A stretch of 64,000 nucleotides of DNA, taken from positions 15,139 through 79,138 of the forward strand of contig CAZQXW010000003.1 in assembly GCA_964597365.1 (NCBI GenBank), in the 5' to 3' direction. The notes beneath the pieces were generated by a model. The model worked only from the letters and a program-made list of their open reading frames with translations. It did no database searches and was not told the origin of the DNA. Below, one piece after another: positions 19,856 to 61,961 of this stretch (the first letter of the stretch is position 1; every line of letters starts with the position of its first letter). The stretch is from an uncultured Thermoplasmatales archaeon (GTDB lineage: Archaea > Thermoplasmatota > E2 > DHVEG-1). The position numbers and the translations under genes are program-made.

Positions 19856-19874
19856 TATACCTCAAATATCTCTT

Positions 19875-42484: not shown

Positions 42485-42979
42485 GTGTACAAGATTAGAA
42501 AAGCAGAAGAAAAAGATATCCCAAGCATAAAAGAAATTTACAACAAAGAGGTTAGAGGAGGGATTGCTACTTTTGATACCCAAGAAAAATCATTGGAAGA
42601 TATGAAAAAATGGTTTAGCTCTCATGACACTAAAAATCCGATCATTGTCGCCGAGCTTAATAGCAAAATAATCGGTTGGGCAAGTCTAAGCAAGTACGAC
42701 AGTAAAAAAGCATATTCAAACACTGCTGAAGCTTCACTTTATATCTCAGAAGATCATCAGGGCAAAGGCATAGGTAAAAAGATAATGAAACATCTTTTAG
42801 ACGAGGGCAAAAAAAGGGGTTTGCATACAGTTATTGCAAGGATTACAGACGGAAATGAAGTAAGTGTTACTCTTCATAAAAAATTTGGATTTGAATATGT
42901 GGGCATTTACAAAGAAGTGGGAAAGAAATTTGGAAAGTTTCTTGATGTACACCTGATGCAAAAAATATTCAAAAATTAA
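42485..42979 (+). CDS. GNAT-family N-acetyltransferase
   Basis: Acetyl-CoA binding motif HQGKGIGKKIMKHLL. There is no in-frame ATG; GTG at 42485 gives the typical start MYKIRKAEEKDIPSIKEIY. The ORF-track TTG at 42467 is possible but less likely. Confidence 0.8.
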   Translation: MYKIRKAEEKDIPSIKEIYNKEVRGGIATFDTQEKSLEDMKKWFSSHDTKNPIIVAELNSKIIGWASLSKYDSKKAYSNTAEASLYISEDHQGKGIGKKIMKHLLDEGKKRGLHTVIARITDGNEVSVTLHKKFGFEYVGIYKEVGKKFGKFLDVHLMQKIFKN

Positions 42980-43566
42980 TTTTTAATTGATTTGAAACCT
43001 AATTCAAATGCTTTTTTGTTAATTTCTTGAAATTTTTTAGGTACATTTTCAAGGATTGTGTCGATTAAAACTTCTTTTTTGAATGGCAGGACATCTGCAC
43101 CTGCAAGAGCTCCGAGCATTACAACGTTTTTTGTAATAATCGCACCGGCCTCTTTTGCAAGTTTTGTAGCATCAATTTTGTAGAGTTTTCCGTATGTTTC
43201 TAGCTCACCAAATACCTTTTCAAGCTTAGGATATTCCTCGTCGCCTGTTGAAACCGTGAAGGGTATTACCGGGGTGATATCAGTTATGATTTTTGTATCC
43301 TTATTTGTATATTGAGCATAGCGTAATGCTTCAGAGGGTTCCATGCTTAGAAATGCTTTTGCAGAACCATTTGGAACGAGAGGGCCTGATACATCACCTA
43401 GTCTTACGGTACAGTTTACACTACCGCCACGTTGTGCCATACCATGTACTTCTGAAACAAATACATTTACCCCTGCCTTAACTGCTGCTTTGCCAAGTAT
43501 GTTTGAGGCAGTGATTACTCCTTGGCCGCCTACTCCTGTGAGAACTATACTTATTTTCTCTTTCAT
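42976..43566 (-). CDS. iorB: Indolepyruvate:ferredoxin oxidoreductase subunit beta
   Basis: 196 aa gamma-type domain (ISIVLTGVGGQGVITASNILGKAA). Translationally coupled downstream of iorA. Confidence 0.9.
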   Translation of the reverse strand: MKEKISIVLTGVGGQGVITASNILGKAAVKAGVNVFVSEVHGMAQRGGSVNCTVRLGDVSGPLVPNGSAKAFLSMEPSEALRYAQYTNKDTKIITDITPVIPFTVSTGDEEYPKLEKVFGELETYGKLYKIDATKLAKEAGAIITKNVVMLGALAGADVLPFKKEVLIDTILENVPKKFQEINKKAFELGFKSIKN

Positions 43567-45450
43567 TTATTTCTCCTCCTTTACATGAATTGCACCAAAA
43601 GGACAAATCGTTGCACAGTTTCCACAACCATTACACTGCTGTTCATCAATTAAGATACTTCCATCTTCACCATAATAAATTGCTGGACAGCCGAATCTCC
43701 CTATACATGTTTTACATTTCTTGCATTTTTCTTGATCGATTGTATAAACCGGAATTGCTTCTCCATGTTTTCTTTTGTCTCTGTTTTCTAAAAGAATGCA
43801 GGGTGATTTGGAAACAACTACTGCAGGCCCCTTAAAGTCAAGTGCACGTTTGTATGCTTCAGTTGTTGCTTTTATGTCATTGGGGTCTGTTATTTCAATT
43901 AGTTCTGCACCACAGCCTTTACAAACATCTTCTACAAGAATCTTTTTTGCAGGTCTGCCCATTCCATCGAATTCGGTTCCAGGATGTGGTTGATGGCCTG
44001 TCATAGCAGTTGTTCTATTGTCAAGAACAGTGATTACCAAATCATGGTTGTGATGAACTGCGTTTACAAGGGGCGGTATTCCGCTATGGAAAAATGTTGA
44101 ATCTCCCATGAAACTGATTATTTTTTTATCGGTTGCCACTGCAAGACCACATGCCGTTCCTGCGTTACTGCCCATACAAAGAAGCAGGTCTGCCATTTCA
44201 AGTGGTTTTTCACGACCAAGTGTATAACAGCCGATATCTGTTGGATAAATCACACCTTTGGGTTGTGCTTTTTTTGCCGCATAATAAGTTGCTCTATGCG
44301 GACAACCTGGACAAAGGGCCGGTGGTCTGCTGGGAAGCTTTATATCTGATTTTTTTGGGTTTTTGTATGTTTTGTTTACTTTGAATATTTTACAAAATGC
44401 ATCTGAAACTATATCTGGATTGTATTCGAATAGCCTTGAGAAATGCCCTGTTGATTTGCCTAGTATTTTTACATCAACACCCAGATCATAAGCTAATGTT
44501 TTGAATTGATTTTCAAGAATTGGTTCAAGTTCTTCTACAATTACTATATTTTTACATGATTTCATGAACTTTTCACACATTTTTCGAGGAAGTGGGTTGC
44601 TCATTCCAAGTTTTAAAATTCTAACATCAAGATTTAGATCCTCAGCTACTTCTTTTACATAGTTATACGCAACGCCAGATGTAACAATACCCCAGTCTTT
44701 CGGTTTTCCTACTTCGATTATCTTGTTAAAAGGCGATTTTTCTGCAATTTGCTCTGCTTTAACTAGCATTTTTAAAAGCTCTGGATGACGTGCTCTTGCT
44801 ATCGCAGGAGTTGTCACCCACATTGGGCTTTTTTCAAAGTTACCTTTCTTTCTAGGTGCTTTAATTTTTTCTAAATCAATTGGGCCTCTTACATGGTTAA
44901 GTCTAGTTGTAGTTCTAAGAAGTATGGGTGACTTTAGTTCTTCAGATATTTCAAAACCAAGCCGAGTCATTTCTTTTGCTTCATTTGGTGTTGAAGGCTC
45001 AAACATTGGAGCTCCACTAAAAAGTGCATAGTATCTGTTATCTTGTTCATTTTGAGATGAATGACATGATGGGTCATCTGCAGAAATTATTACATGCCCC
45101 CCAACGCAACCAATATACATGTATGTCATGAATGTATCAGCTGCGACATTAAGGCCAACATGTTTCATGCAAGTAAGAGCGCGAAGTCCAGATATAGCTG
45201 CTGCTCCTGCTACTTCAAGTGCTACTTTTTCGTTTGTTGAGTATTCGAAATAATAGCTTGGCTCTTTTTTTTGTTTTGTAAAATGTTTTGCTATATGTGA
45301 AAAAGTATCTGCAATCTCTGAAGAAGGTGTCCCTGGATAAGTTGTTGCAACGTCAACTCCTGCCTCTATTGCACCTCTTGTAATTGCTTCGTTTCCAAGT
45401 AAAAGTATCTTTTTTTTAGGTTTGTCTTCTAATATTTCCATTTTTATCAT
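43567..45450 (-). CDS. iorA: Indolepyruvate:ferredoxin oxidoreductase subunit alpha
   Basis: 627 aa. TPP-binding region (GCPHRATYYA, DIGCYTLG, GDSTFFHSG) and C-terminal 2x[4Fe-4S] (CKKCKTCIGRFGCPAI, CNGCGNCATICPFGAI). Confidence 0.95.
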   Translation of the reverse strand: MIKMEILEDKPKKKILLLGNEAITRGAIEAGVDVATTYPGTPSSEIADTFSHIAKHFTKQKKEPSYYFEYSTNEKVALEVAGAAAISGLRALTCMKHVGLNVAADTFMTYMYIGCVGGHVIISADDPSCHSSQNEQDNRYYALFSGAPMFEPSTPNEAKEMTRLGFEISEELKSPILLRTTTRLNHVRGPIDLEKIKAPRKKGNFEKSPMWVTTPAIARARHPELLKMLVKAEQIAEKSPFNKIIEVGKPKDWGIVTSGVAYNYVKEVAEDLNLDVRILKLGMSNPLPRKMCEKFMKSCKNIVIVEELEPILENQFKTLAYDLGVDVKILGKSTGHFSRLFEYNPDIVSDAFCKIFKVNKTYKNPKKSDIKLPSRPPALCPGCPHRATYYAAKKAQPKGVIYPTDIGCYTLGREKPLEMADLLLCMGSNAGTACGLAVATDKKIISFMGDSTFFHSGIPPLVNAVHHNHDLVITVLDNRTTAMTGHQPHPGTEFDGMGRPAKKILVEDVCKGCGAELIEITDPNDIKATTEAYKRALDFKGPAVVVSKSPCILLENRDKRKHGEAIPVYTIDQEKCKKCKTCIGRFGCPAIYYGEDGSILIDEQQCNGCGNCATICPFGAIHVKEEK

Positions 45451-45953: not shown

Positions 45954-46142
45954 AGAGTTCGTTTAAAGACAAGAGTGGACAATTACTGTCAGCTCTGGTT
46001 TAGAGTATGGTAGTAATTTAAATTTTCTTTTATTTTTATATACTTATAATAATATTGCCAATTAAATTAATGTTTTTAGAATAATTAGATAAAGCAAAAT
46101 AATTTAAATCAAGTAATATATTCACCTTGCCTGTTGATAGGG

Positions 46143-47765
46143 ATGGTAAATTATATAATTGTAACAGGCGGGGTTATTTCTGGTCTAGGCAAAGGAATTA
46201 CTACCGCCAGTATAGGAAAGATTCTGCAACTTCATGGATACAATGTAACAGCGATGAAAATCGACCCATATATGAATTTTGATGCAGGGACTCTAAGACC
46301 TACAGAACATGGTGAAGTATGGGTCACAGAAGACGGTGGCGAAATAGACCAAGACCTTGGTCATTATGAAAGGTTTTTAGATGTAAATATTCCAAAATAT
46401 CACAATATTACAACAGGGCAAGTCTATAGCGCTGTAATTGAAAAAGAAAGAAAGGGAAAATATCTTGGAAAGACCGTGCAGCCTATCCCACATGTAACAG
46501 ACGAGATAAAAAGAAGAATAAGAAGGCCTGCTGAAGAAAAAAACTGGGATTTTGTCCTTGTTGAAATTGGCGGCACTGTAGGAGACTATGAAAATCAATT
46601 GTTTTTGGAAGCAGTCCGTCAGATGAAACAAGAGGGTGAAAAAGTAGCTTATGTGCATGTAACATATGTCCCAAAGCTAAATGCCCTTGGCGAAGCAAAA
46701 ACTAAGCCTACACAGCATTCTGTAAAACTTCTAAGGGAAATAGGCATTCAACCTGATTTTATTGTAACACGCTCTGAAGACCCGCTTGATAATATACGCC
46801 GTGATAAAATTGCTTTGTTTTGTAACGTTCATCCTGACGATGTTATAAGCAATGAAGATGTCGACAACATCTATGCAGTATCACTTACTTTTGAAAAACA
46901 AGACTTATGTAAAAAAGTCCTTCGTAAATTAAACCTTAGAAAAGATCATAACGATCTGGAAGGTTGGGAAAAATTCATTAAGAAAATCAGGAGAATTCAA
47001 AATACTGTAAAAATAGGCATTGTAGGAAAATACTTTGATATTGGAACAAGTCAGTTATCAGATAGTTACATAAGTGTCATAGAAGCGGTAAAACACGCTT
47101 CTTGGAATAATAGTGTGATGCCTGAGGTACATTGGCTTGATTCAAAAGAGTTTGAAAAAGATCCGGGTAAACTTTCAAAATTAGATGATCTTGATGGTGT
47201 TATCGTTCCTGGTGGCTTTGGAAAATCAGGGATTGATGGGAAAATTTCAACAATTAGATATTGTAGAGAAAATGCAATTCCATTCCTAGGTCTTTGTCTT
47301 GGAATGCAACTTGCAGTCGTAGAATTTTCAAGAAATAAATGCGGTCTTACAAAAGCTCATTCTACAGAATTTGAAAAAAATGCACCGCATCCTGTTGTTG
47401 ATTTTATTCCTGATCAAGTAAAAATACTGCAGGATTCAAGATATGGTGCAACAATGCGTCTTGGTGCATATCCTGCAGAAATTAAAAAAGGAACGATTAT
47501 ACATAAATTATACGAATCAGGAAAAGTCTCTGAGAGGCATCGCCACAGGTACGAAGTAAACCCAGAATATGTAGAAAAACTTGAGAGATGTGGTTTGGTA
47601 TTCTCAGGAAAGAGCCCTGATGGTGTGCTTATGGAGTTTATGGAACTTCCAAATCATCCTTATTATGTTGCAACACAAGCTCATCCTGAATTTAAAAGTA
47701 GACCAATGAAACCCGCACCAATGTTTAATGGTCTTATCAAAGCTGCTAAAAAAAGAAGGAGATAG
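46143..47765 (+). CDS. pyrG: CTP synthase
   Basis: YIIVTGGVISGLGKG N-terminus and C-terminal class-I glutamine amidotransferase (GLCLGMQ, His/Glu). The ORF-track TTG start at 46134 is replaced by the ATG at 46143. Confidence 0.97.
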   Translation: MVNYIIVTGGVISGLGKGITTASIGKILQLHGYNVTAMKIDPYMNFDAGTLRPTEHGEVWVTEDGGEIDQDLGHYERFLDVNIPKYHNITTGQVYSAVIEKERKGKYLGKTVQPIPHVTDEIKRRIRRPAEEKNWDFVLVEIGGTVGDYENQLFLEAVRQMKQEGEKVAYVHVTYVPKLNALGEAKTKPTQHSVKLLREIGIQPDFIVTRSEDPLDNIRRDKIALFCNVHPDDVISNEDVDNIYAVSLTFEKQDLCKKVLRKLNLRKDHNDLEGWEKFIKKIRRIQNTVKIGIVGKYFDIGTSQLSDSYISVIEAVKHASWNNSVMPEVHWLDSKEFEKDPGKLSKLDDLDGVIVPGGFGKSGIDGKISTIRYCRENAIPFLGLCLGMQLAVVEFSRNKCGLTKAHSTEFEKNAPHPVVDFIPDQVKILQDSRYGATMRLGAYPAEIKKGTIIHKLYESGKVSERHRHRYEVNPEYVEKLERCGLVFSGKSPDGVLMEFMELPNHPYYVATQAHPEFKSRPMKPAPMFNGLIKAAKKRRR

Positions 47766-47770
47766 GAAGT

Positions 47771-49858
47771 TTATTTTTTCTTTTTTTCTGGCGGTAGCGG
47801 TGGTTTTTTAATCTGAAGTCTTAGTTGGCATTTAAGACATCTTTGTGCTTCTTTTGCTGCCTCATCTTCACAAAGACATTGTTCTACTTGTTTGAAACCA
47901 GGTACTCTTTCTTTTACAGAAATTTTCGTAATCTCTGCTCTTTTTCTATCTGGAAATCCTTCATCACGGCCTATACATGGATCTGCTTCATCGTCTGGGT
48001 AAAGCTGCTGATCGATTATTCCATCTCCACCAAGATATTTGTCAATTGATTTTGCGGCAAGTCTTCCTCCTTGAACTGCCCATATTACTGTTTGTGGGCC
48101 GGTTACAAGGTCCCCACCTGCAAAAACACCTTTCTTCGAGGTTTCTTGGGTTTCTTCCTCTGCTAAAACTCGGCCTCTCTTATTTAGTTCAACGCCAAAT
48201 CCTTCAGCATCGCATCTCTGGCCGATACCAAATATAAGTCTGTCAAGATCTAAAATAAATTCAGATCCTTCTATTGGAACCGGCCTTCTTCTACCACTTG
48301 AATCAGGTTTTCCAAGTTCCATTTTAATGCATTCAACTTTTAATTTATCTTTGTCTTTAATGATTTTAGTAGGATTTGTAAGAAATAGCATCTCAACGCC
48401 TTCATCTATTGCATCTTCTACTTCGTGTGCATATGCTGGCATTTCTTTTTTGGTTCGTCTGTAGATTATTTTTACAGATTTTGCTCCTTTCCTAAGCGAA
48501 CATCTTGCGATATCTATTGCAACGTTTCCTCCGCCTACAACACCTATATCTCCTTTTAAATCAACGTTTTTTCCAAAGTTTATTTGCCTTAGTGTTTTTA
48601 TTCCATCTAGAACTCTTGGATCATCTTCTCCTTCAATGCCCATTGACCATCCTTCTGGTGCCCCCATCGCAAGATAGGTTGCGTCAAATCCTTGCTTGAA
48701 AAGTTCGTCGGTTGATTCTATCTTTGTATTGCATTTGATTTTTACACCAATGTCTTCTATTTCTTTTATCTCGCTTTCAAGTGCCTCTGGAGGTAGGCGA
48801 TAATCTGGTATTCCTGCCTTAAGCATTCCACCAGGTTTTTCTAGCATGTCAAATACTGTTACATCGTGTCCTTTAAGTTTTAAAAACCATGCTGCTGTAA
48901 GTCCCGATGGGCCTGCTCCTACAATTGCTACTTTTTTACCTGTAGGCTTTGCAATTTTAAGTTTTTCTTTCCAGGATTTATCATCGTTTTCTGCTACAAA
49001 ACGCTTTAGTTCTCTGATAGAGATTGGTTTGTTTATCTCAGTTCGTGAGCATTCATCTTCACAGGGATGATTGCAAACTAAACCGAGTGAATGAGGAAAT
49101 GGAAACTTTGATCTAATTACAGCAAGAGAGTCTTGATGTCTTCCTTCTGCAATGTATCTAACATATCTTGGAATGTCTGTTTTTGCAGGGCAGCCATGTT
49201 TGCATGGTATGAGCTTTTCTTCTCTTGTTTTTTCTTCGGTTTCTTCTTTGTCTACAAGTGCTCCCGATGGACATACCTCTACACATGCTCTGCAGAATTT
49301 GCAACCTGAGTCTTTTAATTCTGAGTCTCTTGTAGTTCCTACAACTGTGTCTATGCCTCGGTTGATAAGCCCTATTGCACCTACCCCTCGCACTTCCTGA
49401 CACATTCTTACGCATCGTCCGCAGAGAATGCATTTGTCAAGATCTCTTATGAATAGTGGGTCTTCTGAATAAATCGGCAACTCTCTTTTCTCAGGAGTGT
49501 AATTTGATAATATTTCGTTTACACCAACATAATCCACGACTTTTTTTAGATCAGAAGAAGGAGGTACATCCTTTGGATAATTTGAAAGAATAAGCCAAAT
49601 CAGGTTCTTCCTTAATTTCTGTAATTCTTTAGTATCTGTTTTTACAAACATTCCTTCAGATACTTTAGTAGTGCAAGATGTTGGAAAGCCCCTCATCTTT
49701 TCTATTTCTACAACACAAAGCCTACACGCAGCAATCGGCTTTAAGTTAGGATGATAACAAAGATTCGGAATGTATATTCCATTATCTGTTGCTGCCTCTA
49801 GGACGGTTTGGCCTTCTTTTGCATTTATTTTTTTTCCATCAATGGTTAATTTGATCAT
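47771..49858 (-). CDS. Iron-sulfur flavoprotein: N-terminal [2Fe-2S] and [4Fe-4S] (HydA/NuoG-N-terminus-like) domains fused to a glutamate-synthase-small-subunit (GltD)-like NAD(P)H:FAD oxidoreductase
   Basis: 2Fe-2S CYHPNLKPIAACRLCVVEI. 4Fe-4S CILCGRCVRMC and CKFCRACVEVCP. GltD-type Fe-S CKHGCPAKTDIP...CNHPCEDEC. FAD/NADPH Rossmann folds KKVAIVGAGPSGLTAA and DIGVVGGGNVAIDIA. Confidence 0.9.
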   Translation of the reverse strand: MIKLTIDGKKINAKEGQTVLEAATDNGIYIPNLCYHPNLKPIAACRLCVVEIEKMRGFPTSCTTKVSEGMFVKTDTKELQKLRKNLIWLILSNYPKDVPPSSDLKKVVDYVGVNEILSNYTPEKRELPIYSEDPLFIRDLDKCILCGRCVRMCQEVRGVGAIGLINRGIDTVVGTTRDSELKDSGCKFCRACVEVCPSGALVDKEETEEKTREEKLIPCKHGCPAKTDIPRYVRYIAEGRHQDSLAVIRSKFPFPHSLGLVCNHPCEDECSRTEINKPISIRELKRFVAENDDKSWKEKLKIAKPTGKKVAIVGAGPSGLTAAWFLKLKGHDVTVFDMLEKPGGMLKAGIPDYRLPPEALESEIKEIEDIGVKIKCNTKIESTDELFKQGFDATYLAMGAPEGWSMGIEGEDDPRVLDGIKTLRQINFGKNVDLKGDIGVVGGGNVAIDIARCSLRKGAKSVKIIYRRTKKEMPAYAHEVEDAIDEGVEMLFLTNPTKIIKDKDKLKVECIKMELGKPDSSGRRRPVPIEGSEFILDLDRLIFGIGQRCDAEGFGVELNKRGRVLAEEETQETSKKGVFAGGDLVTGPQTVIWAVQGGRLAAKSIDKYLGGDGIIDQQLYPDDEADPCIGRDEGFPDRKRAEITKISVKERVPGFKQVEQCLCEDEAAKEAQRCLKCQLRLQIKKPPLPPEKKKK

Positions 49859-51597
49859 TCTATCGCCATAAATTTACATGCATTTATACAGGATTTACAT
49901 TTGATGCATTTATCCTTGTCAATTTTTGCGTATTCTTTCTTTTTCCATTCGATTGCATCAACTGGGCATGCTTTGAAGCATACTCCACATTTTACACATT
50001 TATCTTCATTGACTTCAAATTTTATGAGATTTGTACAAACTGTAGCAGGGCAGTTTTTGTCTTTAATATGTGACTCGTATTCATTTGAATAGTATTTCAT
50101 GGTTGTAAGAACGGGGTTTGGTGCTGTATTTCCAAGACCACATAATGCTGTTTTTTTTATCGTATCACTCATCTCTTTTAGAAAAATGAGGTGCTCCTCT
50201 GTACCATTTCCTTCTGTAATTGTCTCAAGAATCTCATACATTCTTTTAAGACCTATTCGGCATGGAACGCATTTGCCACAGGATTCTGCAACTGTAAAGC
50301 TTAAAAAGTATCTAGCAACGTCAACCATACAGGTTTTCTGATCCATTACAACCATTCCACCAGAGCCCATTATTGCTCCAGTTTCATTTATGGATTCATA
50401 ATCAATGGGCGTATCAAATAACTTTTCAGGAAGACATCCTCCTGAGGGGCCTCCAAGTTGTACTGCTTTTATTGGTATTTTTTTGTCAAGTGCTCCTCCA
50501 CCTGCGCCTTCAAGAAGGTTTCTTATTTTTGTACCCATTGGAACTTCTACAAGCCCGGTATTTTTGATTTTTCCTGCAAGTGCAAAAACCTTTGTTCCCT
50601 TGGATTTTTTGTATCCTATGGATGAAAACCAGTCTGCACCTTTGAGTATGATATGTCTTACATTTGCAAGGGTTTCAACATTGTTTATGTTTGAAGGTTT
50701 TTCCCAAAGCCCTTTTTGTGCTGGAAACGGTGGCCTTGGATTTGGCATACCTCTCCTTCCTTCAATTGAAGCCATCAGAGCAGTTTCCTCACCGCAGACA
50801 AATGCCCCTGCTCCTTCTTTTACAATCATGTCAAAGTCAAAGCCTGAATTTTGTATGTTTTTTCCTAAGTAGCCTTTCTTTCTTGCCTGCTGCATTGCAA
50901 TATTTAATCTTTTAACTGCAAGAGGATACTCTGCACGACAATATATGTAGCCATGTGTTGCACCAATTGCATATGCTCCTATGACCATTCCTTCGATTAC
51001 TGCATGAGGGTCTCCTTCGAGGATGCTTCTATCCATAAAAGCACCGGGATCACCTTCATCAGCATTACAGATTATGTATTTTTCATCTGCCTTCGCGTCT
51101 TTTGCAAACTGCCATTTAAGCCCTGTTGAAAAACCAGCCCCGCCTCTACCACGAAGTCCTGAGTTTTTCATCTCATCGATTATCTCTTGTGGCTTCATTT
51201 TAAACGCTTTTTCAAGTGCTTTATAACCTTCCGTCTCAATGTATTCTTTAATATCCTCAGGATTGATTTCTCCGCAGTTTTTTAGAACTATTCTTTGCTG
51301 GTTTTTAAAAAAGTTTTTGTAATCTTCTCCTGCAAGTAGTTTTTCAACTGGTTTGTTTTCTATGAGGTGCTCTTTTACTATTTGTTCTACGTTTTCTGGT
51401 TTTACAAATTCATAGGTTGTTCTTTTGCCATCGATTATAATATCAACTAAAACATCTCTGAAAAGTCCTCGATCACCTACTCGTACTACTTCAAAATCGA
51501 GTTTGTTTTTCTTGACCTGGTTTTCAAAGTTATCTGCGACTTTTTCTGCTCCTGCTGAAACCCCGCTTGTACCAACGCATACTAGAACTTTGTTCAT
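49855..51597 (-). CDS. NuoF-like NAD(H)-binding FMN flavoprotein (HydB/bifurcating-type, with C-terminal 2x[4Fe-4S])
   Basis: NuoF core (GLRGRGGAGFSTGLKW, NADEGDPGAF, SCGKCVPCR). Thioredoxin-like N-terminal extension. C-terminal ferredoxin motifs CVKCGVCFKACP and CIKCKSCINAC. 4-nt overlap with the downstream gene. Confidence 0.95.
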   Translation of the reverse strand: MNKVLVCVGTSGVSAGAEKVADNFENQVKKNKLDFEVVRVGDRGLFRDVLVDIIIDGKRTTYEFVKPENVEQIVKEHLIENKPVEKLLAGEDYKNFFKNQQRIVLKNCGEINPEDIKEYIETEGYKALEKAFKMKPQEIIDEMKNSGLRGRGGAGFSTGLKWQFAKDAKADEKYIICNADEGDPGAFMDRSILEGDPHAVIEGMVIGAYAIGATHGYIYCRAEYPLAVKRLNIAMQQARKKGYLGKNIQNSGFDFDMIVKEGAGAFVCGEETALMASIEGRRGMPNPRPPFPAQKGLWEKPSNINNVETLANVRHIILKGADWFSSIGYKKSKGTKVFALAGKIKNTGLVEVPMGTKIRNLLEGAGGGALDKKIPIKAVQLGGPSGGCLPEKLFDTPIDYESINETGAIMGSGGMVVMDQKTCMVDVARYFLSFTVAESCGKCVPCRIGLKRMYEILETITEGNGTEEHLIFLKEMSDTIKKTALCGLGNTAPNPVLTTMKYYSNEYESHIKDKNCPATVCTNLIKFEVNEDKCVKCGVCFKACPVDAIEWKKKEYAKIDKDKCIKCKSCINACKFMAIE

Positions 51598-52068
51598 CTA
51601 TTTGTCCTCCTTTTTGTATTTCTTGAGCATCTCATCCATCATCTGAATTGTACAGTTTCCATAGAAATCGTCATCTACTTGGACTACGGGTGCCATCCCA
51701 CAACATCCAAGACACGCTACTCGTTCTAGTGAAAACATTCCATCCTCTGTTGTTTCACCATCTTTTATTCTAAGCTTTGTTGAAAGATAATCTAGTATTT
51801 CTTTTCCACCCATGACATGACACGCGGTTCCCTGGCAGACACGTATTGTATGTTTTCCTCTGGGCGTTAGGTAAAATTGTGTGTAAAAAGTAAGGACTCC
51901 ATAGATATCTACTGGGAAAATGTTTAATTCTTTTGCAACAAGGTCTACTGCTTCTTCAGGAACGTAACCATATTCTTCCTGAATGTCTTGCAGAAGAGGT
52001 ATTAGTACTCCTTTCTTTTTACCATGTTTTTTTATCAGCTTTTTTGTTTTAGAAAGGTCGACAGACAT
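51598..52068 (-). CDS. NuoE-like [2Fe-2S] thioredoxin-fold subunit (HydC-type)
   Basis: CQGTACHVMGG...CLGCCGMAPVV gives the NuoE 2Fe-2S ligands. 156 aa. It abuts the NuoF-like gene. Confidence 0.9.
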   Translation of the reverse strand: MSVDLSKTKKLIKKHGKKKGVLIPLLQDIQEEYGYVPEEAVDLVAKELNIFPVDIYGVLTFYTQFYLTPRGKHTIRVCQGTACHVMGGKEILDYLSTKLRIKDGETTEDGMFSLERVACLGCCGMAPVVQVDDDFYGNCTIQMMDEMLKKYKKEDK

Positions 52069-52170: not shown

Positions 52171-53010
52171 TTGAACTGTTTATTTGTCTCAGATTTGCAT
52201 GGTAATAAAAAAAGATACAAAAAGTTGTTTGGAATAGTTGATGAGAAAAAGCCTGATGCGGTTTTTTTTGGCGGGGATCTTTTACCAAATTCCTTTAGAA
52301 TAGATTGTGATATTGACAAGTTTTTAGAAGAGGAGTTTTTTTCAAAAGTTAAAAAATACAACGAGAAAACTCGTTTTTTCGTAATAATGGGAAATGATGA
52401 CCCACGGGTTTTCGAAAAGCATTTCATAGATGCTGATAAAAAGGGTTTAATTGAGTATGTTTCAGAAAAAACAGTAAAATTTAATGATTTATTTGTAACT
52501 GGTTATCCTTTTGTCCCTCCCACTCCTTTTCAGCTGAAAGACTGGGAAAGATATGATGTTTCTCGTTTCGTTGATGTTGGCGGAATTTCTCCTGAGGAAG
52601 GTATAAGAACAGTTGATGTTGATAAAGACCTGGTTCGTTTTTCCACTATTTCAGATGATTTGAAAAATATTGTGAAAAATGCACCTGCTGAAAAAACCAT
52701 TTTTTTATTTCATTCGCCGCCGTATAATTCAAACCTTGATCGTGCAGGTCTTGATGGGAAAATGGTGGATAGTGCTCCAATGGATGTTCATGTAGGAAGT
52801 ATTGCAATTCAGAGGTTTATTGAAAAATACCAGCCATTTTTAACTTTACATGGACATATACATGAAACTGTTAGTTTGACGGGTCAGTGGAGAGAAAAAT
52901 TTGGAAAAACAATTTCATTCACGGGCTCTTCATATGATTCAGAATTAGTAATAATTGATTTTGATACGAATAATTTAGAAAAAACAGAAAGAATGGTATT
53001 TACAATCTAG
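52171..53010 (+). CDS. Calcineurin-like metallophosphoesterase
   Basis: LFVSDLHGN, GGDLL, GNDD, and C-terminal GHIHE motifs. TTG start preceded by AGGTG. The 3' end overlaps the convergent giant gene by 4 nt. Confidence 0.8.
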   Translation: MNCLFVSDLHGNKKRYKKLFGIVDEKKPDAVFFGGDLLPNSFRIDCDIDKFLEEEFFSKVKKYNEKTRFFVIMGNDDPRVFEKHFIDADKKGLIEYVSEKTVKFNDLFVTGYPFVPPTPFQLKDWERYDVSRFVDVGGISPEEGIRTVDVDKDLVRFSTISDDLKNIVKNAPAEKTIFLFHSPPYNSNLDRAGLDGKMVDSAPMDVHVGSIAIQRFIEKYQPFLTLHGHIHETVSLTGQWREKFGKTISFTGSSYDSELVIIDFDTNNLEKTERMVFTI

Positions 53011-56000
53011 TTTTTCTTAATTTTTAACTTTTCAATTCTTGAATAAGGACTTGTTAAGTGTGTGGCCCAGCTGGTCTTGTTTTTGATGTCTTTATCTGTT
53101 ATAATGTGCACGTCGAGCAAGTTTTCTGTTTCCACGCCCGTCCTTTCTTCGTTTTCCCTTGAAAGTTTTTTCCCTTCTTCTTCAAACCACTCTAGGAGTA
53201 AGTCTTTTTCTTCATCTGTCCCTTTGAAATGAACTATTAAATCTATGTCGCTTGCCGGTCCTGCTTCGCCTGTTTTTGTACTGCCTATCAGATAAATTTC
53301 CTCTATTCCGTATGCTTCTGGATCTATTTTTTCTGCTATTTCTTCTGCTTTTTGCATTCTCCAGCTCCAGTGATCCGGGGGTTTAAGATAACCAAGTGCT
53401 TCGTTTGCATCTCCATCCATTATAATTGATAGTGTTCCTCCCTCCTCTAAATCAGATGTTTTTACAAGTTTTACCACATTTTGATATTTCTGGTATTTTG
53501 GAACTTTTTTGGGTAAGTGGTTTTTTGCATCCAAAATTTTCTTTTCGTTGAAAATTATTCCTGATTCATCAGGATAAAGTGGCAAATATTGGATATCTGC
53601 TTCCACAAGATCCTGGAAGAAATGAGTTCCAAAGGAAAGCTCTGGAGTGTATTCTCCTTTTTTCTTTGCAATTTCTACTAAAAGCGATGTGTTGTTAATA
53701 TCTCCATATTTTACTGGCACACCTAATTTCATATCTCCTCTACTACCCCATCGACCAGGACCCATAAGGATGAATCTTCTTCTCGGCAGTTCCTGGTTTA
53801 GATGGTTTATTATTTTGGCAATTTTTTGCATTTCTTCACGTGATTCTAATTTTGAGTATTCTTCTGGTGAGACGTATACGATGTAGCATATGTTTTCTAT
53901 CTGACTTGTTGTAACATATTTGTTTGATGAAAATATTTTTCTCTGATTAGGTATATTTTTTGGAACTGGTTTTCTCTCTATTCCTCTACCTTGACTCTGT
54001 GGTCTGCATTGTAGGAAATATAGTTCTTTTCCGTCTGATGCGAATTCTACATCTACAGGTGTTCCTATTTTTTGTTCCAAAATATTTAGAATTTTTTTCA
54101 TTTTCTTGAGAAAATCTGTTTTAGAAAAAAGATTTTCAAATGTTATTACAAAATCTTCGTTGCTAATATCTGTTAAAATATTTGGCTGTGATAATGTACC
54201 ATCTTTGTAGATTGAAATTATTCTATCTATTTTTGGGATTTCGTCTGAGTGTTTTTTGAAAAAATCAATTGCATCAACTGTTTCTATTGCTCTTGTTTTT
54301 AGGTTTATTAAATCCATATAACGTGGGGAGTATTGTACTCTTTCAGCTGCAAGTGTATTTACTCTAAGATTTGGCCTCATCGGGGATATTAGTATAGGAT
54401 AATCATTTCCAACCCGATCTACTGCACGTGTGCCAAGACCTGGAACTAGCCTTATTATTCCATCTTCTCTTCTTACCCTTGGGGACCAGCGAAATTCGCT
54501 TCTACTGAATGCAACGCCTGCGTATGCTGGTAGATAATAATGACCGATTTTTCTCCCTACTACTTGCTGAATTAGAATGCCCATTTCTTCACTGAAGTCA
54601 AGGAGCCCTCTTTCTCTTCTGTATTCAATAGGATCTGGGCCAAAAGTAGAAGCATATACTTCAGATATTGCATCCATGAGACTATAAAGTCTTTCATCTT
54701 CGCTTCCTGTATTTGGAACGAAAAGGCTTTTATATTTTCCCGAGAAGGCTGCTCCAAAACTATCTTCTAAAAGGCTTGATGATCTTATAATTATGGGGCT
54801 TCCTTCCAAATCTCTTATTATTCTTCTAAAACCTTCTACTATCTCATGTGGAAATGTCGCATTTTTAAAGACTTGTTCTAAAAATGGCTGATCTTTGCTT
54901 ATCTGATCTGGTTCTAAATATTTTATATGAAATGCTTCATCAAGATCGTTATAATGAATGAATTCGCGTAGTGTATCTGATGTTACATACCAGCTCTTTG
55001 GAACGGTTATGTCTTTTAATGTATCATCACTTTCTTTTGCTTCTTCAAGTATTTTTTCAGCAAGAAATACTCCGCTTGTTTTTCCTCCAAATTTACCTGG
55101 GCCTTGAGTTGGGCCTACAACATTACCTAAAAGACTTACAAAATCAGATAGTTTTATGAAGTGTTTTGCAACATTTACATATTCAAGTCTGTCTGTGAAA
55201 AATCTTCTGATAAGCGCAGTTCTAATTGTTGTTTTATCCTCAGGAGATAGTGTTTTTTCTACATCTTCATTTTCAAAGAATCTATTTAGTTCCTCTGTTA
55301 TTTCTGAGAGAGGCATCCCTGGTTTCTGAGATGTTAAAAGAAGTGGTCTTGCTTTGTCTTGTTTGAGCCAGACCTGAAACATTTTTGAGATTTCTTCATC
55401 TGTAAGGGTTTCCTTGGCCATTTCAAATATTTGTTTTTGAATGTGTTTGAGCGATTCTAAATCCTGACGTGGATTGGGCATGTTAATTCCACACCATTGG
55501 CTGTCTGCTGCATTTCTATCAACAGGGCATATGCTCCCCAATAGCATTGTTATTCTTTCATTTTCATACCTGTATAGATAATAAACCATTTTACGAGTTA
55601 TTCTCAGAAGGGTTCTAGGATCTGTTTTTAATAAAAGATCTATTATTACTTCCCAGTCTTTTTTTGTTTCTTCTAAAATGGGTTCGCCAGTAAGTGTTTT
55701 CTGAAATTTAGTGAGTTTTTTCCTCTGTGCTTCAAGTTCTTGTTTTATCGCGCTTTCACTTACATAATTTCCAAGTAGATCTGCTATTGCATCTATGAGT
55801 CGTCTTTCATCTATCAAGAAAGGCCCTTCATCAATCTCAGGTTTTTCTTCCAGGTAAAAAACTTCCAGACTTCCTACTTTTTTGTCATCTGAGATTATGT
55901 TGCTTACCTGACTCCATTTGGTGATTTTGAAATTTTTAGTCCTATGTTCCTTGCCATCTATCGTAATTCTAGCACATGTGATTTCAGGATACTGCCATGC

Positions 56001-56153
56001 CGGAGGGATTAATTCGAGTATTTTTTGTATTGAATCCTGGAAAGAAATAGACTTATCCTTTACTATATCTGTTAAATTGTATAGACAATTTAGCTCCTTT
56101 ACTCGCTCTTTTAAGGCATCTATACCTTGGTTGCCATTCTTTGCTTTTGTCAT
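53007..56153 (-). CDS. Giant multidomain protein (1048 aa): GAF-like N-terminus, PPDK_N-type ATP-grasp nucleotide-binding domain (PEP synthase/PPDK N-terminal family), His-less swivel-like segment, C-terminal minimal nucleotidyltransferase (MNT)
   Basis: PPDK_N hallmarks KFGGKTSGVFLAEKIL...ITVPKSWYVTSDTLREF, IIIRSSSLLEDSFGAAFSGKYKSLFVPN and EFASDGKELYFLQCRPQ. Downstream block FILMGPGRWGSRGDMKLGVPV...FGTHFFQDL is shared with the neighbouring protein. C-terminal NTase motif IYLIGSTKTGEAGPASDIDLIVHF (GS-x9-DxD). N-terminal LKERVKELNCLYNLTDIV is a GAF-type preface. Confidence 0.85.
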   Translation of the reverse strand: MTKAKNGNQGIDALKERVKELNCLYNLTDIVKDKSISFQDSIQKILELIPPAWQYPEITCARITIDGKEHRTKNFKITKWSQVSNIISDDKKVGSLEVFYLEEKPEIDEGPFLIDERRLIDAIADLLGNYVSESAIKQELEAQRKKLTKFQKTLTGEPILEETKKDWEVIIDLLLKTDPRTLLRITRKMVYYLYRYENERITMLLGSICPVDRNAADSQWCGINMPNPRQDLESLKHIQKQIFEMAKETLTDEEISKMFQVWLKQDKARPLLLTSQKPGMPLSEITEELNRFFENEDVEKTLSPEDKTTIRTALIRRFFTDRLEYVNVAKHFIKLSDFVSLLGNVVGPTQGPGKFGGKTSGVFLAEKILEEAKESDDTLKDITVPKSWYVTSDTLREFIHYNDLDEAFHIKYLEPDQISKDQPFLEQVFKNATFPHEIVEGFRRIIRDLEGSPIIIRSSSLLEDSFGAAFSGKYKSLFVPNTGSEDERLYSLMDAISEVYASTFGPDPIEYRRERGLLDFSEEMGILIQQVVGRKIGHYYLPAYAGVAFSRSEFRWSPRVRREDGIIRLVPGLGTRAVDRVGNDYPILISPMRPNLRVNTLAAERVQYSPRYMDLINLKTRAIETVDAIDFFKKHSDEIPKIDRIISIYKDGTLSQPNILTDISNEDFVITFENLFSKTDFLKKMKKILNILEQKIGTPVDVEFASDGKELYFLQCRPQSQGRGIERKPVPKNIPNQRKIFSSNKYVTTSQIENICYIVYVSPEEYSKLESREEMQKIAKIINHLNQELPRRRFILMGPGRWGSRGDMKLGVPVKYGDINNTSLLVEIAKKKGEYTPELSFGTHFFQDLVEADIQYLPLYPDESGIIFNEKKILDAKNHLPKKVPKYQKYQNVVKLVKTSDLEEGGTLSIIMDGDANEALGYLKPPDHWSWRMQKAEEIAEKIDPEAYGIEEIYLIGSTKTGEAGPASDIDLIVHFKGTDEEKDLLLEWFEEEGKKLSRENEERTGVETENLLDVHIITDKDIKNKTSWATHLTSPYSRIEKLKIKKN

Positions 56154-59134
56154 TTCTCACCTTTTTTAATTATTGCTTTTCCCTTTTTAGCATCAATTAT
56201 TGCTTCAAGAGGTTTATTGGTTTTGATATGTTTAATAAATTCGGTTTCTTTCAATGTTTCTTGTTTTTTAAGCCAATTGTGGTTTATATCCTCTGGTTTT
56301 TTTGTAATCAGGTATCCAACCTGTGATGCTATCATGTCATGGAAGAAGTGTGAGCCTTGTGATGGGTCTATATGTCTTTCTTTGTAGGGTGTTTCAACTA
56401 TTACTTTTGCACCTGCAATATCACTCCAGACAACTGGTATACCAAGCCAGGGATCTGAAGAGCCCCATCGGCCAGGTCCTATCAATATATATGGTCTGTT
56501 TTCATCCATTAATTCGAGGTTTATTTTCTTGATTTCATTTACAACCTTTGCAGAGTTGGACATATCAAATTTACTTGGATCAATGTATAATATATCTGAT
56601 AAGTCTTTTATAACTCCGTTTCCAAGACAGTTTTCACTGTAAAACAATATTTCTTTACGAGGGATTTTGTCTATATCGATGTTTATCTTTTCATCTGGAG
56701 GGACCATGTTTCTTATCTGAAGTATTATCAGCTCTGATGGTTCGCCTCCCTCTTTAGAGGTGTTTAGCGCGAATTCGATTTCTACGGGATATCCCAATGC
56801 TATCTCGCTGATTGAAAGAATTAATTTTAAAGCCTTTGCAAGTGGGATTGAATCATAGTTTAGAATTGGTGAGAAGTCTACTACTAGATAACCCTTGTCA
56901 TATATACCCGGATAAAGGCTATCATCCTCAGGAATATATGTTGATACTACCTTGTCAAGTATACCGTGTTTTTTGGCGACATCAATTTCTAATTTATCCA
57001 GAGATGTTTCTTCATCATATTCAACGAACTTGTAAATTGACCTGAGGTTTAACGCATAAAAACTTGATTGGGCATATTTCATGTAGTCCTTTGGAGTGCC
57101 AAATAATGGTCTTTTAGGTTTACTTGGGCAGAATGCAAAGCTGCTGCCACCATCCACAATTGCTTTTCCAAGACCGAGTGCAAGATAAGCAATACCCTCC
57201 TCAGGTTTGCATGACCCGGAAGGGTAATAATTATAAGATTTTGCAACTCCTGAGATTGTTGGATAAAAATAATTATCATGACGAGTTCCGGCTACTTCTT
57301 GAATTAGAACCGCCATTTTTTCGTCCCCAATATGTTTTGGAGTGTTTTTAATATATGTTCTTGCCTGCTCAAAATAAGTAGAGGCATAGACATGCTTTAT
57401 AGCATTGCATACCTCCTGAAAACGGAGGTCTGCTTCCCATGACTCATTTGGAAGAAGCATTGATGCATATATTCCTGCAAAAGGTTGCATCAAAGAGTCT
57501 TCAAGAAGACCGGAGGATCGCGCAATAAGTGGTTTACGGGTTTTTTTTATAAAAGAGCGTAAATCGCCTAAAACTGTTGCAGGAAGACTTGCATGCATAA
57601 ATTTTGAAGATATTCTTTCGTTGGATAATGTTGCAAAATCCAGGTCAGTTAGATTGTTGTGATTCATGAACATATCAAAAACATCTGTAGAAAGAACAAT
57701 ACTTCTTGGAACCGTAATCCTAAGCCCTGGAAACATATCTTCTGTAATATATTTAGAAAGAAGTTTTGCAACAAATGCTATACCACGGGCTTTACCGCCA
57801 AGTGCTCCATCACCAATACGACTAATTTTTACATAAGGATCATCTATCTTTTGAGAGAAACTAGCAATTGCTGACTGGTTAACTGAGTATTTGTAGTCTT
57901 CAATTACCTCTATCAGTTTTTTCTTTAACGCTTCTTCATTATCAAAACGTTCTTCTGCTTCAGAGCATTTTTTTGCAAGATCTATTTCCCCTATGCTCTT
58001 AATCCATCGTGATATCTCATGATTCTGTGCACAATTATAAATGAGTTTGCTGTCAATTTTATGTATCTCTTTTTGTAGTTCTTCAATCTGAGAGACCTGT
58101 GAGATTTCTTTTCCGTTTTTATCTTTGAAAATAAGTTTATGCGGGCCAAGGTTTTTTTTAATAAATTTTCTCAGAATGTTCATTAGGTTGTTTGATGTTT
58201 TTGAAATGATTTTGGTATTTTTGTTTTCAAGTTCTTTTTTGTCAATAGGTTCTGAGGATTGGATAATTATTGGTAAATCTGGTTTTTCTTCAGATACTTT
58301 ATTTGCCATTTCAATTCCTATTTGTTTTCTATCACCGTTTGTCTTCAGATAATTGTCTGATATTATAAACAAAAGGTCGTCTTTATATTGATTATAAAGC
58401 CTATTTGCCTGCTCGTAATCTCCGGTATGAATGATAAAAGGACGGTTTTTGAACCTCAGTGTTTTTTGCTCGCAGCCCAGATTGTTTGTTATTATTTGTT
58501 TTAAATAGTTGCAAATTTCTTCGTTTATAAGGGATAGATAACTTGAGTAATGTTGTATTGAATCTTCGATTAATAAAATACAGTTTTTTTTATCAATCTT
58601 TGAAAGCTTTTCCAGGTTTTTTTTATCTTCAAAAATTTGAACGATGCTTAGTATTATTTTCCCGTCTCCGTTCCAGGTAAAATATTTATCGATTTTTACT
58701 TCAGAGTCTTCTAATAATCTTGAGATTTCTGAAATCTTGTTATCTAATAATACTAAAGGCGCGTTTGTTTTTGCTTTTATATTTTTTGTAAGTTGATCTA
58801 TTTTTTTATCAGGCGGCTTGTTGAATAGAATTATCAAATCAAAATACTCATTAGAAATTTTTTCAATTACTTGCTCTTCAGTTTCTACATGGGTAATTAC
58901 TGGATTTTGCCCTTCTTCAAAGTTGCACCATTCTGAAAAAAGAGCGTTGAGCCTTCCTTCTTCTTCTAAAAGAAAATAGTCAAAAGAAGAAGAAAGAAGT
59001 AATATTTTTTTAATTTTGTATTGTCTAAATTCCTTTACAAGGTCGTAGCATGCTTGTTTGTTTATATCTGTATCTGTGCCTGTTATTTCTTGTATTTTTT
59101 CTTTTATCTTTTGTTCTTTATCATTTACAAGCAT
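56150..59134 (-). CDS. Giant multidomain protein (about 994 aa): two N-terminal receiver(REC)-like domains followed by PPDK_N-type ATP-grasp domain and His-less swivel-like segment
   Basis: REC-like 1 is degenerate (KILLLSSSFDYFLLE...FDLIILFNKPPD...APLVLLD). REC-like 2 (CILLIEDSIQ...LLFIISDNYLKTNGDRKQIGIEMANKV...LPIIIQSS). PPDK_N hallmarks GGKARGIAFVAKLL, LIARSSGLLEDSLMQPFAGIYASMLLPN, EFALNTSKEGGEPSELIILQIRNM. Shared block YILIGPGRWGSSDPWLGIPV...QGSHFFHDM. The ORF-track TTG start at 59146 is replaced by ATG 59134. The stop overlaps the downstream gene start by 4 nt. Confidence 0.85.
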   Translation of the reverse strand: MLVNDKEQKIKEKIQEITGTDTDINKQACYDLVKEFRQYKIKKILLLSSSFDYFLLEEEGRLNALFSEWCNFEEGQNPVITHVETEEQVIEKISNEYFDLIILFNKPPDKKIDQLTKNIKAKTNAPLVLLDNKISEISRLLEDSEVKIDKYFTWNGDGKIILSIVQIFEDKKNLEKLSKIDKKNCILLIEDSIQHYSSYLSLINEEICNYLKQIITNNLGCEQKTLRFKNRPFIIHTGDYEQANRLYNQYKDDLLFIISDNYLKTNGDRKQIGIEMANKVSEEKPDLPIIIQSSEPIDKKELENKNTKIISKTSNNLMNILRKFIKKNLGPHKLIFKDKNGKEISQVSQIEELQKEIHKIDSKLIYNCAQNHEISRWIKSIGEIDLAKKCSEAEERFDNEEALKKKLIEVIEDYKYSVNQSAIASFSQKIDDPYVKISRIGDGALGGKARGIAFVAKLLSKYITEDMFPGLRITVPRSIVLSTDVFDMFMNHNNLTDLDFATLSNERISSKFMHASLPATVLGDLRSFIKKTRKPLIARSSGLLEDSLMQPFAGIYASMLLPNESWEADLRFQEVCNAIKHVYASTYFEQARTYIKNTPKHIGDEKMAVLIQEVAGTRHDNYFYPTISGVAKSYNYYPSGSCKPEEGIAYLALGLGKAIVDGGSSFAFCPSKPKRPLFGTPKDYMKYAQSSFYALNLRSIYKFVEYDEETSLDKLEIDVAKKHGILDKVVSTYIPEDDSLYPGIYDKGYLVVDFSPILNYDSIPLAKALKLILSISEIALGYPVEIEFALNTSKEGGEPSELIILQIRNMVPPDEKINIDIDKIPRKEILFYSENCLGNGVIKDLSDILYIDPSKFDMSNSAKVVNEIKKINLELMDENRPYILIGPGRWGSSDPWLGIPVVWSDIAGAKVIVETPYKERHIDPSQGSHFFHDMIASQVGYLITKKPEDINHNWLKKQETLKETEFIKHIKTNKPLEAIIDAKKGKAIIKKGEK

Positions 59135-59167
59135 TATATTCAACAAACCCGTTTAGGGTGTTTGTCT

Positions 59168-60454: not shown

Positions 60455-60587
60455 ATTTTTTTCCTCCAAATATAAGCAATCCGGCGATAAAGGAACACCT
60501 ATATATAATCTCCTAATGAAAAGTTCGACAAAAAGTGTAATTTGCTTCTAAACAATCTAGAAATAAAATAGAGAAAAAATAAAGGTT

Positions 60588-61961
<1,374 letters not shown>

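Follow-up and report, generated by a model that had tools for sequence, protein, structure and literature searches.

The transhydrogenases NfnABC and StnABC balance NADPH, NADH and ferredoxin in anaerobes. This kind of enzyme is already known: Stn dates from 2020, the Bfu family from 2022 and the NfnABC and Stn structures from 2023-2025, with NfnABC (Nfn-Bfu) solved from T. sibiricus (Tsi; PDB 9n5u/9n5v; PMC12018979) and C. saccharolyticus (Csac; PDB 9bov/9bp5; PMC11829005), and StnABC, the Sporomusa-type (Sov) Nfn, available as PDB 8oh5/8oh9 (PMC7483475, PMC10482914). The GltD-bearing subunit of these enzymes, StnC or NfnA, runs in the order [2Fe-2S] domain (1-100), GltD module (103-567), 2x[4Fe-4S] domain (590-678) and NuoG/FdhF-like domain, so that the GltD module splits the His-cluster motif HxxxCxxxCxxxCP ... 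CxxCxCxxxxC (PMC7483475); published StnC homologues span 894-1241 residues (PMC7483475). In Tsi NfnA, electrons follow the route A7-A6-A3-A2-A1-B1, with the His-ligated cluster taking them from the GltD clusters, and bifurcation at a 'flavobicluster' of flavin mononucleotide (FMN), B1 and C1 has been described for the Tsi and Csac enzymes (PMC12018979). The bifurcation site of Bfu enzymes and its minimal set of cofactors are nevertheless debated: one proposal takes FMN together with three clusters, B5 among them, and the other the FMN/B1/C1 flavobicluster. We focus here on three adjoining genes in a 64-kb stretch of contig CAZQXW010000003.1 from an uncultured Thermoplasmatales archaeon (the whole stretch is called the window below). 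They probably encode, judging from domain and motif content, a compact BfuABC (HydABC-like) NADPH:NAD+/ferredoxin bifurcating transhydrogenase of the NfnABC/StnABC type, and the complex is a new architectural variant within this known type.

The three-gene unit and its subunits

The genes for subunits C, B and A and the segments of their products discussed below are as follows; the genes are taken from the list of open reading frames (ORFs).

51598-52068, minus strand: C gene, NuoE-like, 156 residues
49855-51597, minus strand: B gene, NuoF-like, 580 residues
51313-51597, minus strand: segment of B with the lost B5 site (alignments to NfnB/HydB/StnB and clade alignment)
50038-51300, minus strand: NuoF/HydB-type core of B, residues 100-520 (Pfam and alignment to 9n5u_B)
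49858-50019, minus strand: C-terminal ferredoxin-like domain of B, residues 527-580 (Pfam Fer4 x2, NfnB/HydB alignment)
47771-49858, minus strand: A gene, fused [2Fe-2S]/2x[4Fe-4S]/GltD-like, 695 residues
49559-49858, minus strand: N-terminal [2Fe-2S] domain of A, residues 1-100 (Fer2_4; aligns to 9bov_A, 9n5u_A and 8oh5_C 4-102)
49244-49453, minus strand: 2x[4Fe-4S] ferredoxin-like domain of A, residues 136-205 (Pfam Fer4_Nqo3/Fer4_7)
47825-49210, minus strand: circularly permuted GltD/NfnL-like flavin adenine dinucleotide (FAD) and NADPH module of A, residues 217-678 (NCBIfam/Pfam, alignments, Foldseek)
47771-47824, minus strand: basic, proline-rich conserved C-terminal tail of A (QLRLQIKKPPLPPEKKKK) and stop codon (translation)

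The C and B genes abut with 0-nucleotide spacing, a GGAGG Shine-Dalgarno-like motif lying within the 3' end of the C gene, and the B and A genes share a 4-nucleotide overlap (ATGA). Subunit C is a NuoE-type thioredoxin-like [2Fe-2S] protein (Pfam 2Fe-2S_thioredx PF01257, E 7e-55) with C78, C83, C119 and C123 as ligands of its C1 cluster, and its best PDB matches are bifurcating NiFe-HydC, HydC and NfnC. Subunit B carries Complex1_51K (PF01512), SLBB (PF10531), NADH_4Fe-4S (PF10589) and two C-terminal Fer4 domains (528-576). The motifs of its FMN/NAD(H) site (GLRGRGGAGF at 147, CNADEGDPGAF at 177 and GAGAFVCGEETAL at 262) are identical to those of NfnB (9n5u_B, E 3.5e-226), and the B1 [4Fe-4S] cysteines are C440, C443, C446 and C486. 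The hinge site B2 consists of C423, H510, C516 and C521, which align to Tsi C437, H524, C529 and C534; H510, C516 and C521 are invariant across 121 homologues of B, and a site of His and three Cys here is conserved in virtually all Bfu-family B subunits (PMC12018979). The fifth B2 position is Thr, like the Zn-binding sites of Tsi NfnB and Sov StnB, whereas Csac NfnB has Cys. Two CxxCxxCxxxC motifs (C534/C537/C540/C544 and C564/C567/C570/C574) make up B3/B4, the C-terminal domain that in NfnABC forms part of the ferredoxin-binding site (PMC12018979). Among solved structures, B is nearly equidistant from Tsi NfnB (755 bits), A. mobile NiFe-HydB, Csac NfnB, FeFe-HydB and StnB (717 bits); complex-I NuoF, at about 384 bits, falls far under these bifurcating B subunits.

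Subunit A is made up of an N-terminal domain, a 2x[4Fe-4S] domain (117-208), a GltD module (218-678) and a 17-residue tail, with Pfam matches to Fer2_4 (1-76), 2x4Fe-4S Fer4_Nqo3/Fer4_7 (138-201), Fer4_20 (218-293), as in GltD/DPD, and the FAD/NAD(P) domain Pyr_redox_2 (308-598). Its first 210 residues correspond to the N-terminal part of HydA (NCBIfam FeFe_hydrog_A6, E 6e-59), and residues 117-208 align to 9bov_A 590-678 and 8oh5_C 599-677 (HMMER). All 12 cysteines of the two ferredoxin-type domains are conserved among 77 homologues, namely the invariant [2Fe-2S] ligands C34, C45, C48 and C62 and the 2x[4Fe-4S] ligands C143, C146, C149, C153 and C186, C189, C192, C196. The N-terminal domain ends in LILSNYPKDVPP, at the point where StnC, NfnA and HydA start the H-x3-C motif of the His-ligated [4Fe-4S] cluster. 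Here LSNYPKDVPP takes the place of the ligands of that cluster, and RCLKC is not followed by CxC-x4-C. Between residues 63 and 142 the window protein has no Cys at all, and the 77 homologues have no conserved Cys or His. With the ligands gone on both sides, the His-ligated cluster is absent from A.

The GltD module starts at residue 218 with PCKHGCP (C219, C223) and ends with EAQRCLKC (C674, C677); these four cysteines, together with C262, C266, C270 and K285, give two [4Fe-4S] sites. Residues 639-678 align to NfnL residues 11-47 (4ylf_B, 5jca_L) and to NfnA residues 555-594, and since the end of the module thus aligns to the canonical NfnL/GltD N-terminus, the module is circularly permuted as in NfnA/StnC. 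K285 (in ELKRF), R354 (in YRLP), the FAD motif GAGPSG, and the NADPH motif GGGNVA with Y466-R467-R468 are invariant across the 77 homologues. In StnC and Tsi NfnA, the corresponding Lys (K170 and K165, respectively) is a ligand of the FAD-proximal cluster, whereas NfnL has Glu (PMC12018979, PMC10482914). As shared derived characters of the sequence, these features link the module specifically to Nfn-Bfu, rather than to glutamate synthase (GOGAT) or NfnSL. The module scores 386 bits to 9bov_A 103-567, within a range of 343-393 bits for NfnA/StnC GltD parts in general, versus 287 bits to NfnL (4ylf_B), and whole A ranks its solved relatives as Csac NfnA (1e-151), Tsi NfnA (2e-140), StnC (5e-136), NfnL (7e-85) and GltD (about 1e-55). 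An AlphaFold2 (AF2) model of A from the 77-sequence alignment has a mean predicted local distance difference test score (pLDDT) of 84.6 and a predicted template modelling score of 0.81, with pLDDT >90 over most of the GltD module; its top Foldseek matches are 9bov_A, 9n5u_A and 8oh5_C (NfnA/StnC), although such a search is no test of spatial equivalence for permuted domains.

Could A instead feed electrons, as a beta (GltD) subunit, into a split glutamate synthase that depends on NAD(P)H or ferredoxin, the alternative offered by the preliminary description? The best whole-protein NCBIfam name is indeed 'putative NADPH-dependent glutamate synthase small subunit', and a glutamine synthetase gene lies 10 kb off (62159-63505). 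However, the NCBIfam matches are far under their curated cut-offs (555 vs 916 bits), solved GltD chains reach about 190 bits versus 460-510 bits for NfnA/StnC, the permuted module with the Lys ligand of NfnA/StnC is unlike GOGAT beta, and no GltB-domain gene lies among the large ORFs of the window. On these grounds, we rejected this role, which we consider highly improbable.

Beyond the GltD module, the protein ends after 17 residues, and Pfam finds no molybdopterin-type domain in A. The tail stands where StnC/NfnA have the CxC-x4-C half-motif and the entire NuoG/FdhF-like domain, and its residues Q678, L679, R680, L681, I683, P687 and P689 are invariant or nearly so in the 77 homologues. This pattern, QLRL.I.K.PLPP, is nearly invariant across the clade despite lying past the last cluster ligand. 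Its role may be to hold the permuted GltD module against the ferredoxin domain or against subunit B or C.

These results bear out most of what the preliminary description had read from this locus: the tightly coupled genes and their junctions are exactly as it gave them, the NuoF-like subunit has the extra C-terminal 2x[4Fe-4S] domain, and A fuses a ferredoxin module to a GltD-type flavoprotein, with no H-cluster, molybdopterin or GltB (GOGAT large-subunit) domain found by Pfam/NCBIfam in any of the three subunits. Its Stn/Nfn-type reading of a HydABC-like core with a GltD-type NADPH module is favoured by the structure matches and intact catalytic motifs, and the loss of FMN- or NADH-binding residues that would have spoken against it is not seen. 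The proposed match to the composition of StnABC is a loose one: the set of subunits agrees, but A has a different domain order and no NuoG/FdhF-like domain or His-ligated cluster, and B lacks B5. Furthermore, the NuoF-like Stn subunit, which had been given as StnC, is StnB.

Distribution of the compact form and bounds of the operon

A tblastn search of 80 related loci with the three proteins as queries finds the C-B-A unit with the same collinear A in Thermoplasmata-like archaea (L001-L005) and also in Elusimicrobia, Coatesbacteria, WOR-3 and Stahlbacteria (L006-L008, L029). Homologue names in databases further include Aerophobetes, Phycisphaerae, KSB1, Dehalococcoidia and Deltaproteobacteria, and one B homologue bears the annotation 'NuoF [Thermoplasmata archaeon]'. 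In a neighbour-joining tree of B cores, the compact clade is monophyletic in 99/100 bootstraps and its archaeal subclade in 100/100. In a library of representatives at 50% identity, ~15-20 of the best 150 clusters are collinear and about 700 residues long; most of the other clusters among these 150 are of the StnC/NfnA type, with 980-1270 residues. The closest genomic loci are metagenome-assembled genomes labelled 'uncultured Thermoplasmatales archaeon', with 86-94% identity across A, and the window itself encodes the archaeal markers GatD, NMD3, aRF1 and tRNA-intron endonuclease. Together, these loci and markers show the window to be archaeal, and a bacterial origin based on GC and gene content was rejected. 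The GC content of the operon (0.384) is close to the values for conserved metabolic genes elsewhere in the window (iorAB 0.379, gdh genes 0.388), with no composition-based signal of horizontal transfer.

At the locus itself, the unit is bounded by two genes:

46134-47765, plus strand: CTP synthase gene, convergent neighbour of the three-gene unit
52171-53010, plus strand: metallophosphoesterase gene, divergent neighbour of the three-gene unit

Because unrelated, oppositely oriented genes thus flank both sides, the operon consists of the three genes and is self-contained. Neither the flanks nor the other large ORFs of the window hold a hydrogenase, formate dehydrogenase (FDH) or GltB-domain gene, whose presence in the same operon the preliminary description had named as evidence against its reading, and clade loci having enough flank show no conserved fourth gene. 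A hydrogenase or FDH complex extending past the three genes was rejected at this locus, with unrelated genes on either side and none of these enzymes encoded within 64 kb.

It has to be asked, on the other hand, whether the three subunits might serve as an electron-input or bifurcation module for a catalytic subunit encoded elsewhere, such as a formate dehydrogenase, a hydrogenase or a sulfur/polysulfide reductase. Two Chloroflexota loci (L010:5525-13050 and L012:5560-13009) encode NuoE, a NuoF that has the B5 cysteines, an A-like protein (746-778 residues) and, directly after it, a molybdopterin FdhA; these A-like proteins have the same domain order as A and keep remnants of the His-cluster motif. 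Likewise, a NuoF::GltD fusion lies upstream of FdhA in Dehalococcoidales, and NsoABC of T. litoralis, a homologue, was originally reported to be an NADPH sulfur oxidoreductase (PMC7483475). However, the Chloroflexota versions keep their B5 cysteines and fall outside the clade, A has no free docking module like the FdhF-like domain, the flanks and the 64-kb window offer no candidate partner, and the clade loci with enough flank share no conserved fourth gene. We therefore regard a partner of this kind as unlikely.

The fusions just mentioned form a group of their own. In Dehalococcoidales and other bacteria (L013-L023, L025, L028, L030, L032; e.g. L013:481-3549 and L013:3524-6289), NuoF is fused directly to a permuted GltD in a protein of about 1020-1045 residues, without a B3/B4 domain, with a C-terminal RCLRCD and with NuoE upstream. 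Downstream, most loci encode a complete molybdopterin FdhA that has a HydA-like N-terminus of its own, whereas L019 and L032 have a shorter protein there that does not resemble FdhA. The loci with both NuoF::GltD and FdhA seem to represent a separate architecture of NAD(P)H-linked formate dehydrogenase.

The proposed reaction, the lost B5 site and the metabolic setting

Returning to the bifurcating transhydrogenase, the complex would catalyze the reaction 2 NADPH + NAD+ + 2 Fd(ox) <-> 2 NADP+ + NADH + H+ + 2 Fd(red), where Fd is ferredoxin. First of all, NADPH would reduce the FAD in the permuted GltD module of A, from which single electrons would pass through the two GltD [4Fe-4S] clusters with their seven Cys and Lys285. 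By its place in the sequence, the GltD module of A would correspond to the H-cluster domain of HydA, and electrons would enter the 2x[4Fe-4S] ferredoxin domain directly at its distal cluster, not at a His-ligated one, before passing to the N-terminal [2Fe-2S] cluster and arriving at B1 and FMN of B. Finally, they would be split at the FMN/B1/C1 flavobicluster, with one pair reducing NAD+ at FMN and the other electrons reaching external ferredoxin via C1 and the mobile B3/B4 domain.

Several lines of evidence speak for a bifurcating enzyme. First, bifurcating enzymes are the best solved relatives of all three subunits. Second, the hallmarks of a bifurcating B subunit can be recognized in its sequence, namely the B3/B4 domain, the hinge of His and three Cys, and the FMN/NADH motifs. 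Third, the GltD module has the derived characters of NfnA/StnC. Fourth, the three genes stand alone as a unit both here and in relatives belonging to five phyla. Fifth, the B subunits of the clade hold together (99/100) and group beside the characterized Nfn-Bfu B subunits (64/100). Finally, the setting, with IorAB, two glutamate dehydrogenases (GDHs) and peptide/amino-acid transporters, suggests a fermenter. Measured against the BfuABC family description (PMC9304861), the locus has the BfuB domain set, an adjoining NuoE-type BfuC, a BfuA with 2Fe-2S and 4Fe-4S domains, and the B2 ligands; the B5 site is missing.

This missing site heads the points that weigh against the proposed activity. C7 is the sole remaining B5 ligand, the other positions being S12, D42 and a deletion, and yet the site has been called absolutely conserved in Bfu enzymes (PMC9304861), and a B5 [2Fe-2S] cluster is reported to be essential for bifurcation in an FeFe-HydABC (as cited in PMC12018979). 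The FdhF-like domain, which helps to clamp NfnC in Csac NfnABC, and the His-ligated cluster are both absent, so that assembly and electron path would have to differ from those of NfnABC. Since a real FdhA adjoins the A-like protein in Chloroflexota, a GltD-bearing module can also serve other end reactions. In the tree of B cores, the clade is sister to the Tsi, Sov and Csac NfnB/StnB proteins plus two NfnA-type loci with a support of just 64/100, and in the AF2 model the ferredoxin domain of A, lacking its clusters, is poorly modelled (pLDDT 32-63).

How far does the loss of B5 argue for a non-bifurcating enzyme, whether a simple NADPH:NAD+ transhydrogenase or an NAD(P)H:ferredoxin oxidoreductase, whose energetic coupling disappeared together with B5 and other parts? 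The loss is certainly not confined to this genome. When homologues are scored by motif and Cys counts, the changes from CxxxxC to CxGTSG and from GCxGxC to GD[RK]G[LM]F (GDRGL-F in the window protein) are found in 121/121 of the best database homologues of B; the loss is thus a fixed character of the clade, and not the decay of a single genome. Non-bifurcating HydABC homologues do exist, but the known examples lack B2-B5 altogether (Schut et al. 2022; PMC9304861), whereas B2, B3 and B4 are strictly conserved here; B is therefore of the bifurcating type save for B5. Furthermore, the active Tsi and Csac NfnABC hold a redox-inert Zn at B5 (PMC12018979), so that B5 is no part of the bifurcation site. 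GDRGLF itself (residues 40-46 of B, about 51460-51480) is kept in 119/121 homologues, which suggests a structural substitute rather than decay; an Asp-Arg interaction may stand in for the lost metal site. Set against the clade-wide loss of the ligands and the reported requirement in the FeFe-HydABC, these observations leave uncoupled activity as an unlikely explanation.

We lean slightly, on comparative sequence evidence, towards a bolder proposal that builds on the bifurcating transhydrogenase: the clade would be a natural minimal Bfu enzyme that bifurcates without a B5 metal, a His-ligated cluster or an FdhF-like scaffold, GltD electrons entering at the distal ferredoxin-domain cluster. By analogy, this may be the entry route that the H-cluster uses in HydA.

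In the cell, the enzyme would couple the NADPH pool of the GDHs and the NADH pool with the ferredoxin pool of IorAB and other 2-oxoacid oxidoreductases. The genes concerned, named in the preliminary description, are found at 42976-45450 and 59168-61928:

42976-45450: IorB/IorA genes, near the operon
59168-60469 and 60588-61928, minus strand: two tandem GDH paralogues
62159-63505, plus strand: glutamine synthetase gene, divergent to the GDH pair, 10 kb from the operon

The enzyme could run in either direction in vivo, making NADPH from Fd(red) and NADH or disposing of GDH-derived NADPH. The cofactor choice of the GDHs (NAD or NADP) bears on this running direction. The window also encodes transporters of the oligopeptide (OPT) and SNF types and two D-2-hydroxyacid dehydrogenase paralogues (13752-14705, plus strand; 27647-28615, minus strand); transporters, IorAB, GDHs and 2-hydroxyacid dehydrogenases together suggest the lifestyle of a peptide/amino-acid fermenter.

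Other features of the window include a two-subunit pyruvate carboxylase (biotin carboxylase and carboxyltransferase/biotinyl subunit; 18398-21707, minus strand), which is likewise in keeping with this lifestyle, and, between the operon and the GDHs, two very large genes of 1048 and 998 residues with a 4-nucleotide overlap (53007-59146, minus strand). The sole domain in each is PPDK_N (phosphoenolpyruvate-utilizing, ATP-grasp-like), apart from a C-terminal nucleotidyltransferase domain in the first, and the synteny of the pair is kept in locus L001. A 1194-residue ORF at 613-4197 (minus strand) has no Pfam match at E<=1e-6, and scans of the window for tRNAs and against Rfam gave no matches.

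Implications and comparison with known systems

In the searchable literature, whose coverage is not exhaustive, we came across no account of the short form with its changed domain order and missing B5 site, nor any report of Nfn-Bfu from Thermoplasmata; Nfn-Bfu had previously been listed solely for Euryarchaeota and Firmicutes. The clade amounts to a natural deletion experiment, from which every B5 ligand, the His-ligated cluster and the FdhF-like domain of about 400 residues have gone. If it does bifurcate, it would be independent evolutionary proof that FMN, B1 and C1 (plus B2-B4) suffice for bifurcation, and the same permuted GltD module would have entered the BfuA scaffold at two separate positions. 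It would also extend Nfn-Bfu-type redox balancing to Thermoplasmata-like sediment archaea and several uncultured bacterial phyla. With about 1430 residues per protomer versus about 1930 in Stn, the complex is a smaller target for structural and spectroscopic work. Database annotations of the clade genes go no further than 'NuoF' and 'FAD-dependent oxidoreductase', and metabolic reconstructions may be misled by them, for example into inferring complex I or GOGAT.

The closest comparison is with NfnABC, which is used by another archaeal peptide fermenter, T. sibiricus. Both have three subunits in the gene order NuoE-like, NuoF-like, GltD-bearing; B can be aligned end to end (734-755 bits), and the two share the FMN/NADH motifs, B1, a Zn-type B2 (His and three Cys, with Thr at the fifth position), B3/B4 and C1, as well as the permuted GltD module with its Lys ligand, the Arg of YRLP and the NADPH motif. 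A, on the other hand, has 695 residues versus 953 in Tsi (native length) and 1178 in Csac, its GltD module comes after the ferredoxin domain and does not interrupt the His-cluster motif as it does in NfnABC and StnABC, and A has neither the His-ligated [4Fe-4S] cluster nor the NuoG/FdhF-like domain with its cluster. It keeps both ferredoxin-domain clusters, whereas Tsi NfnA has one fewer, and B has no ligand set at B5, where Tsi and Csac bind Zn with three Cys.

StnABC shares the predicted reaction and the cofactor logic. StnB scores 717 bits against B and the GltD part of StnC 343 bits against A, and the equivalents of StnC K170 and R239 are the conserved K285 and R354; the equivalent of C114 is Ile. 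StnC is, however, much larger (1172 residues); its FdhF-like domain and its branching clusters, which mediate tetramerization, have no counterpart here, and B5, modelled as a [2Fe-2S] cluster in Stn, is absent.

HydABC, an electron-bifurcating [FeFe]-hydrogenase (PDB 7q4v, 8a6t, 7p5h), has a homologous BC core, and as in HydA a catalytic module is joined C-terminally to the 2x[4Fe-4S] domain of A. By contrast, A carries no H-cluster domain, and the third substrate would be NADP(H) via FAD; neither HydA's His-ligated cluster nor the B5 [2Fe-2S] found in HydB is present.

Finally, NfnSL/NfnAB (PDB 4ylf, 5jca) and GltD (PDB 2vdc, 6s6s) share with A the FAD/NADPH fold and the two [4Fe-4S] clusters of their large subunit, with 29-39% identity in structural alignments and Foldseek TM-scores of 0.75-0.79 (normalized by target length). 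They are unpermuted, have Glu or Cys instead of Lys as the deviating cluster ligand, and work with NfnS/PyrK-like or GltB partners. In NfnSL, the FAD itself bifurcates, whereas the FAD of StnC/NfnA does not.

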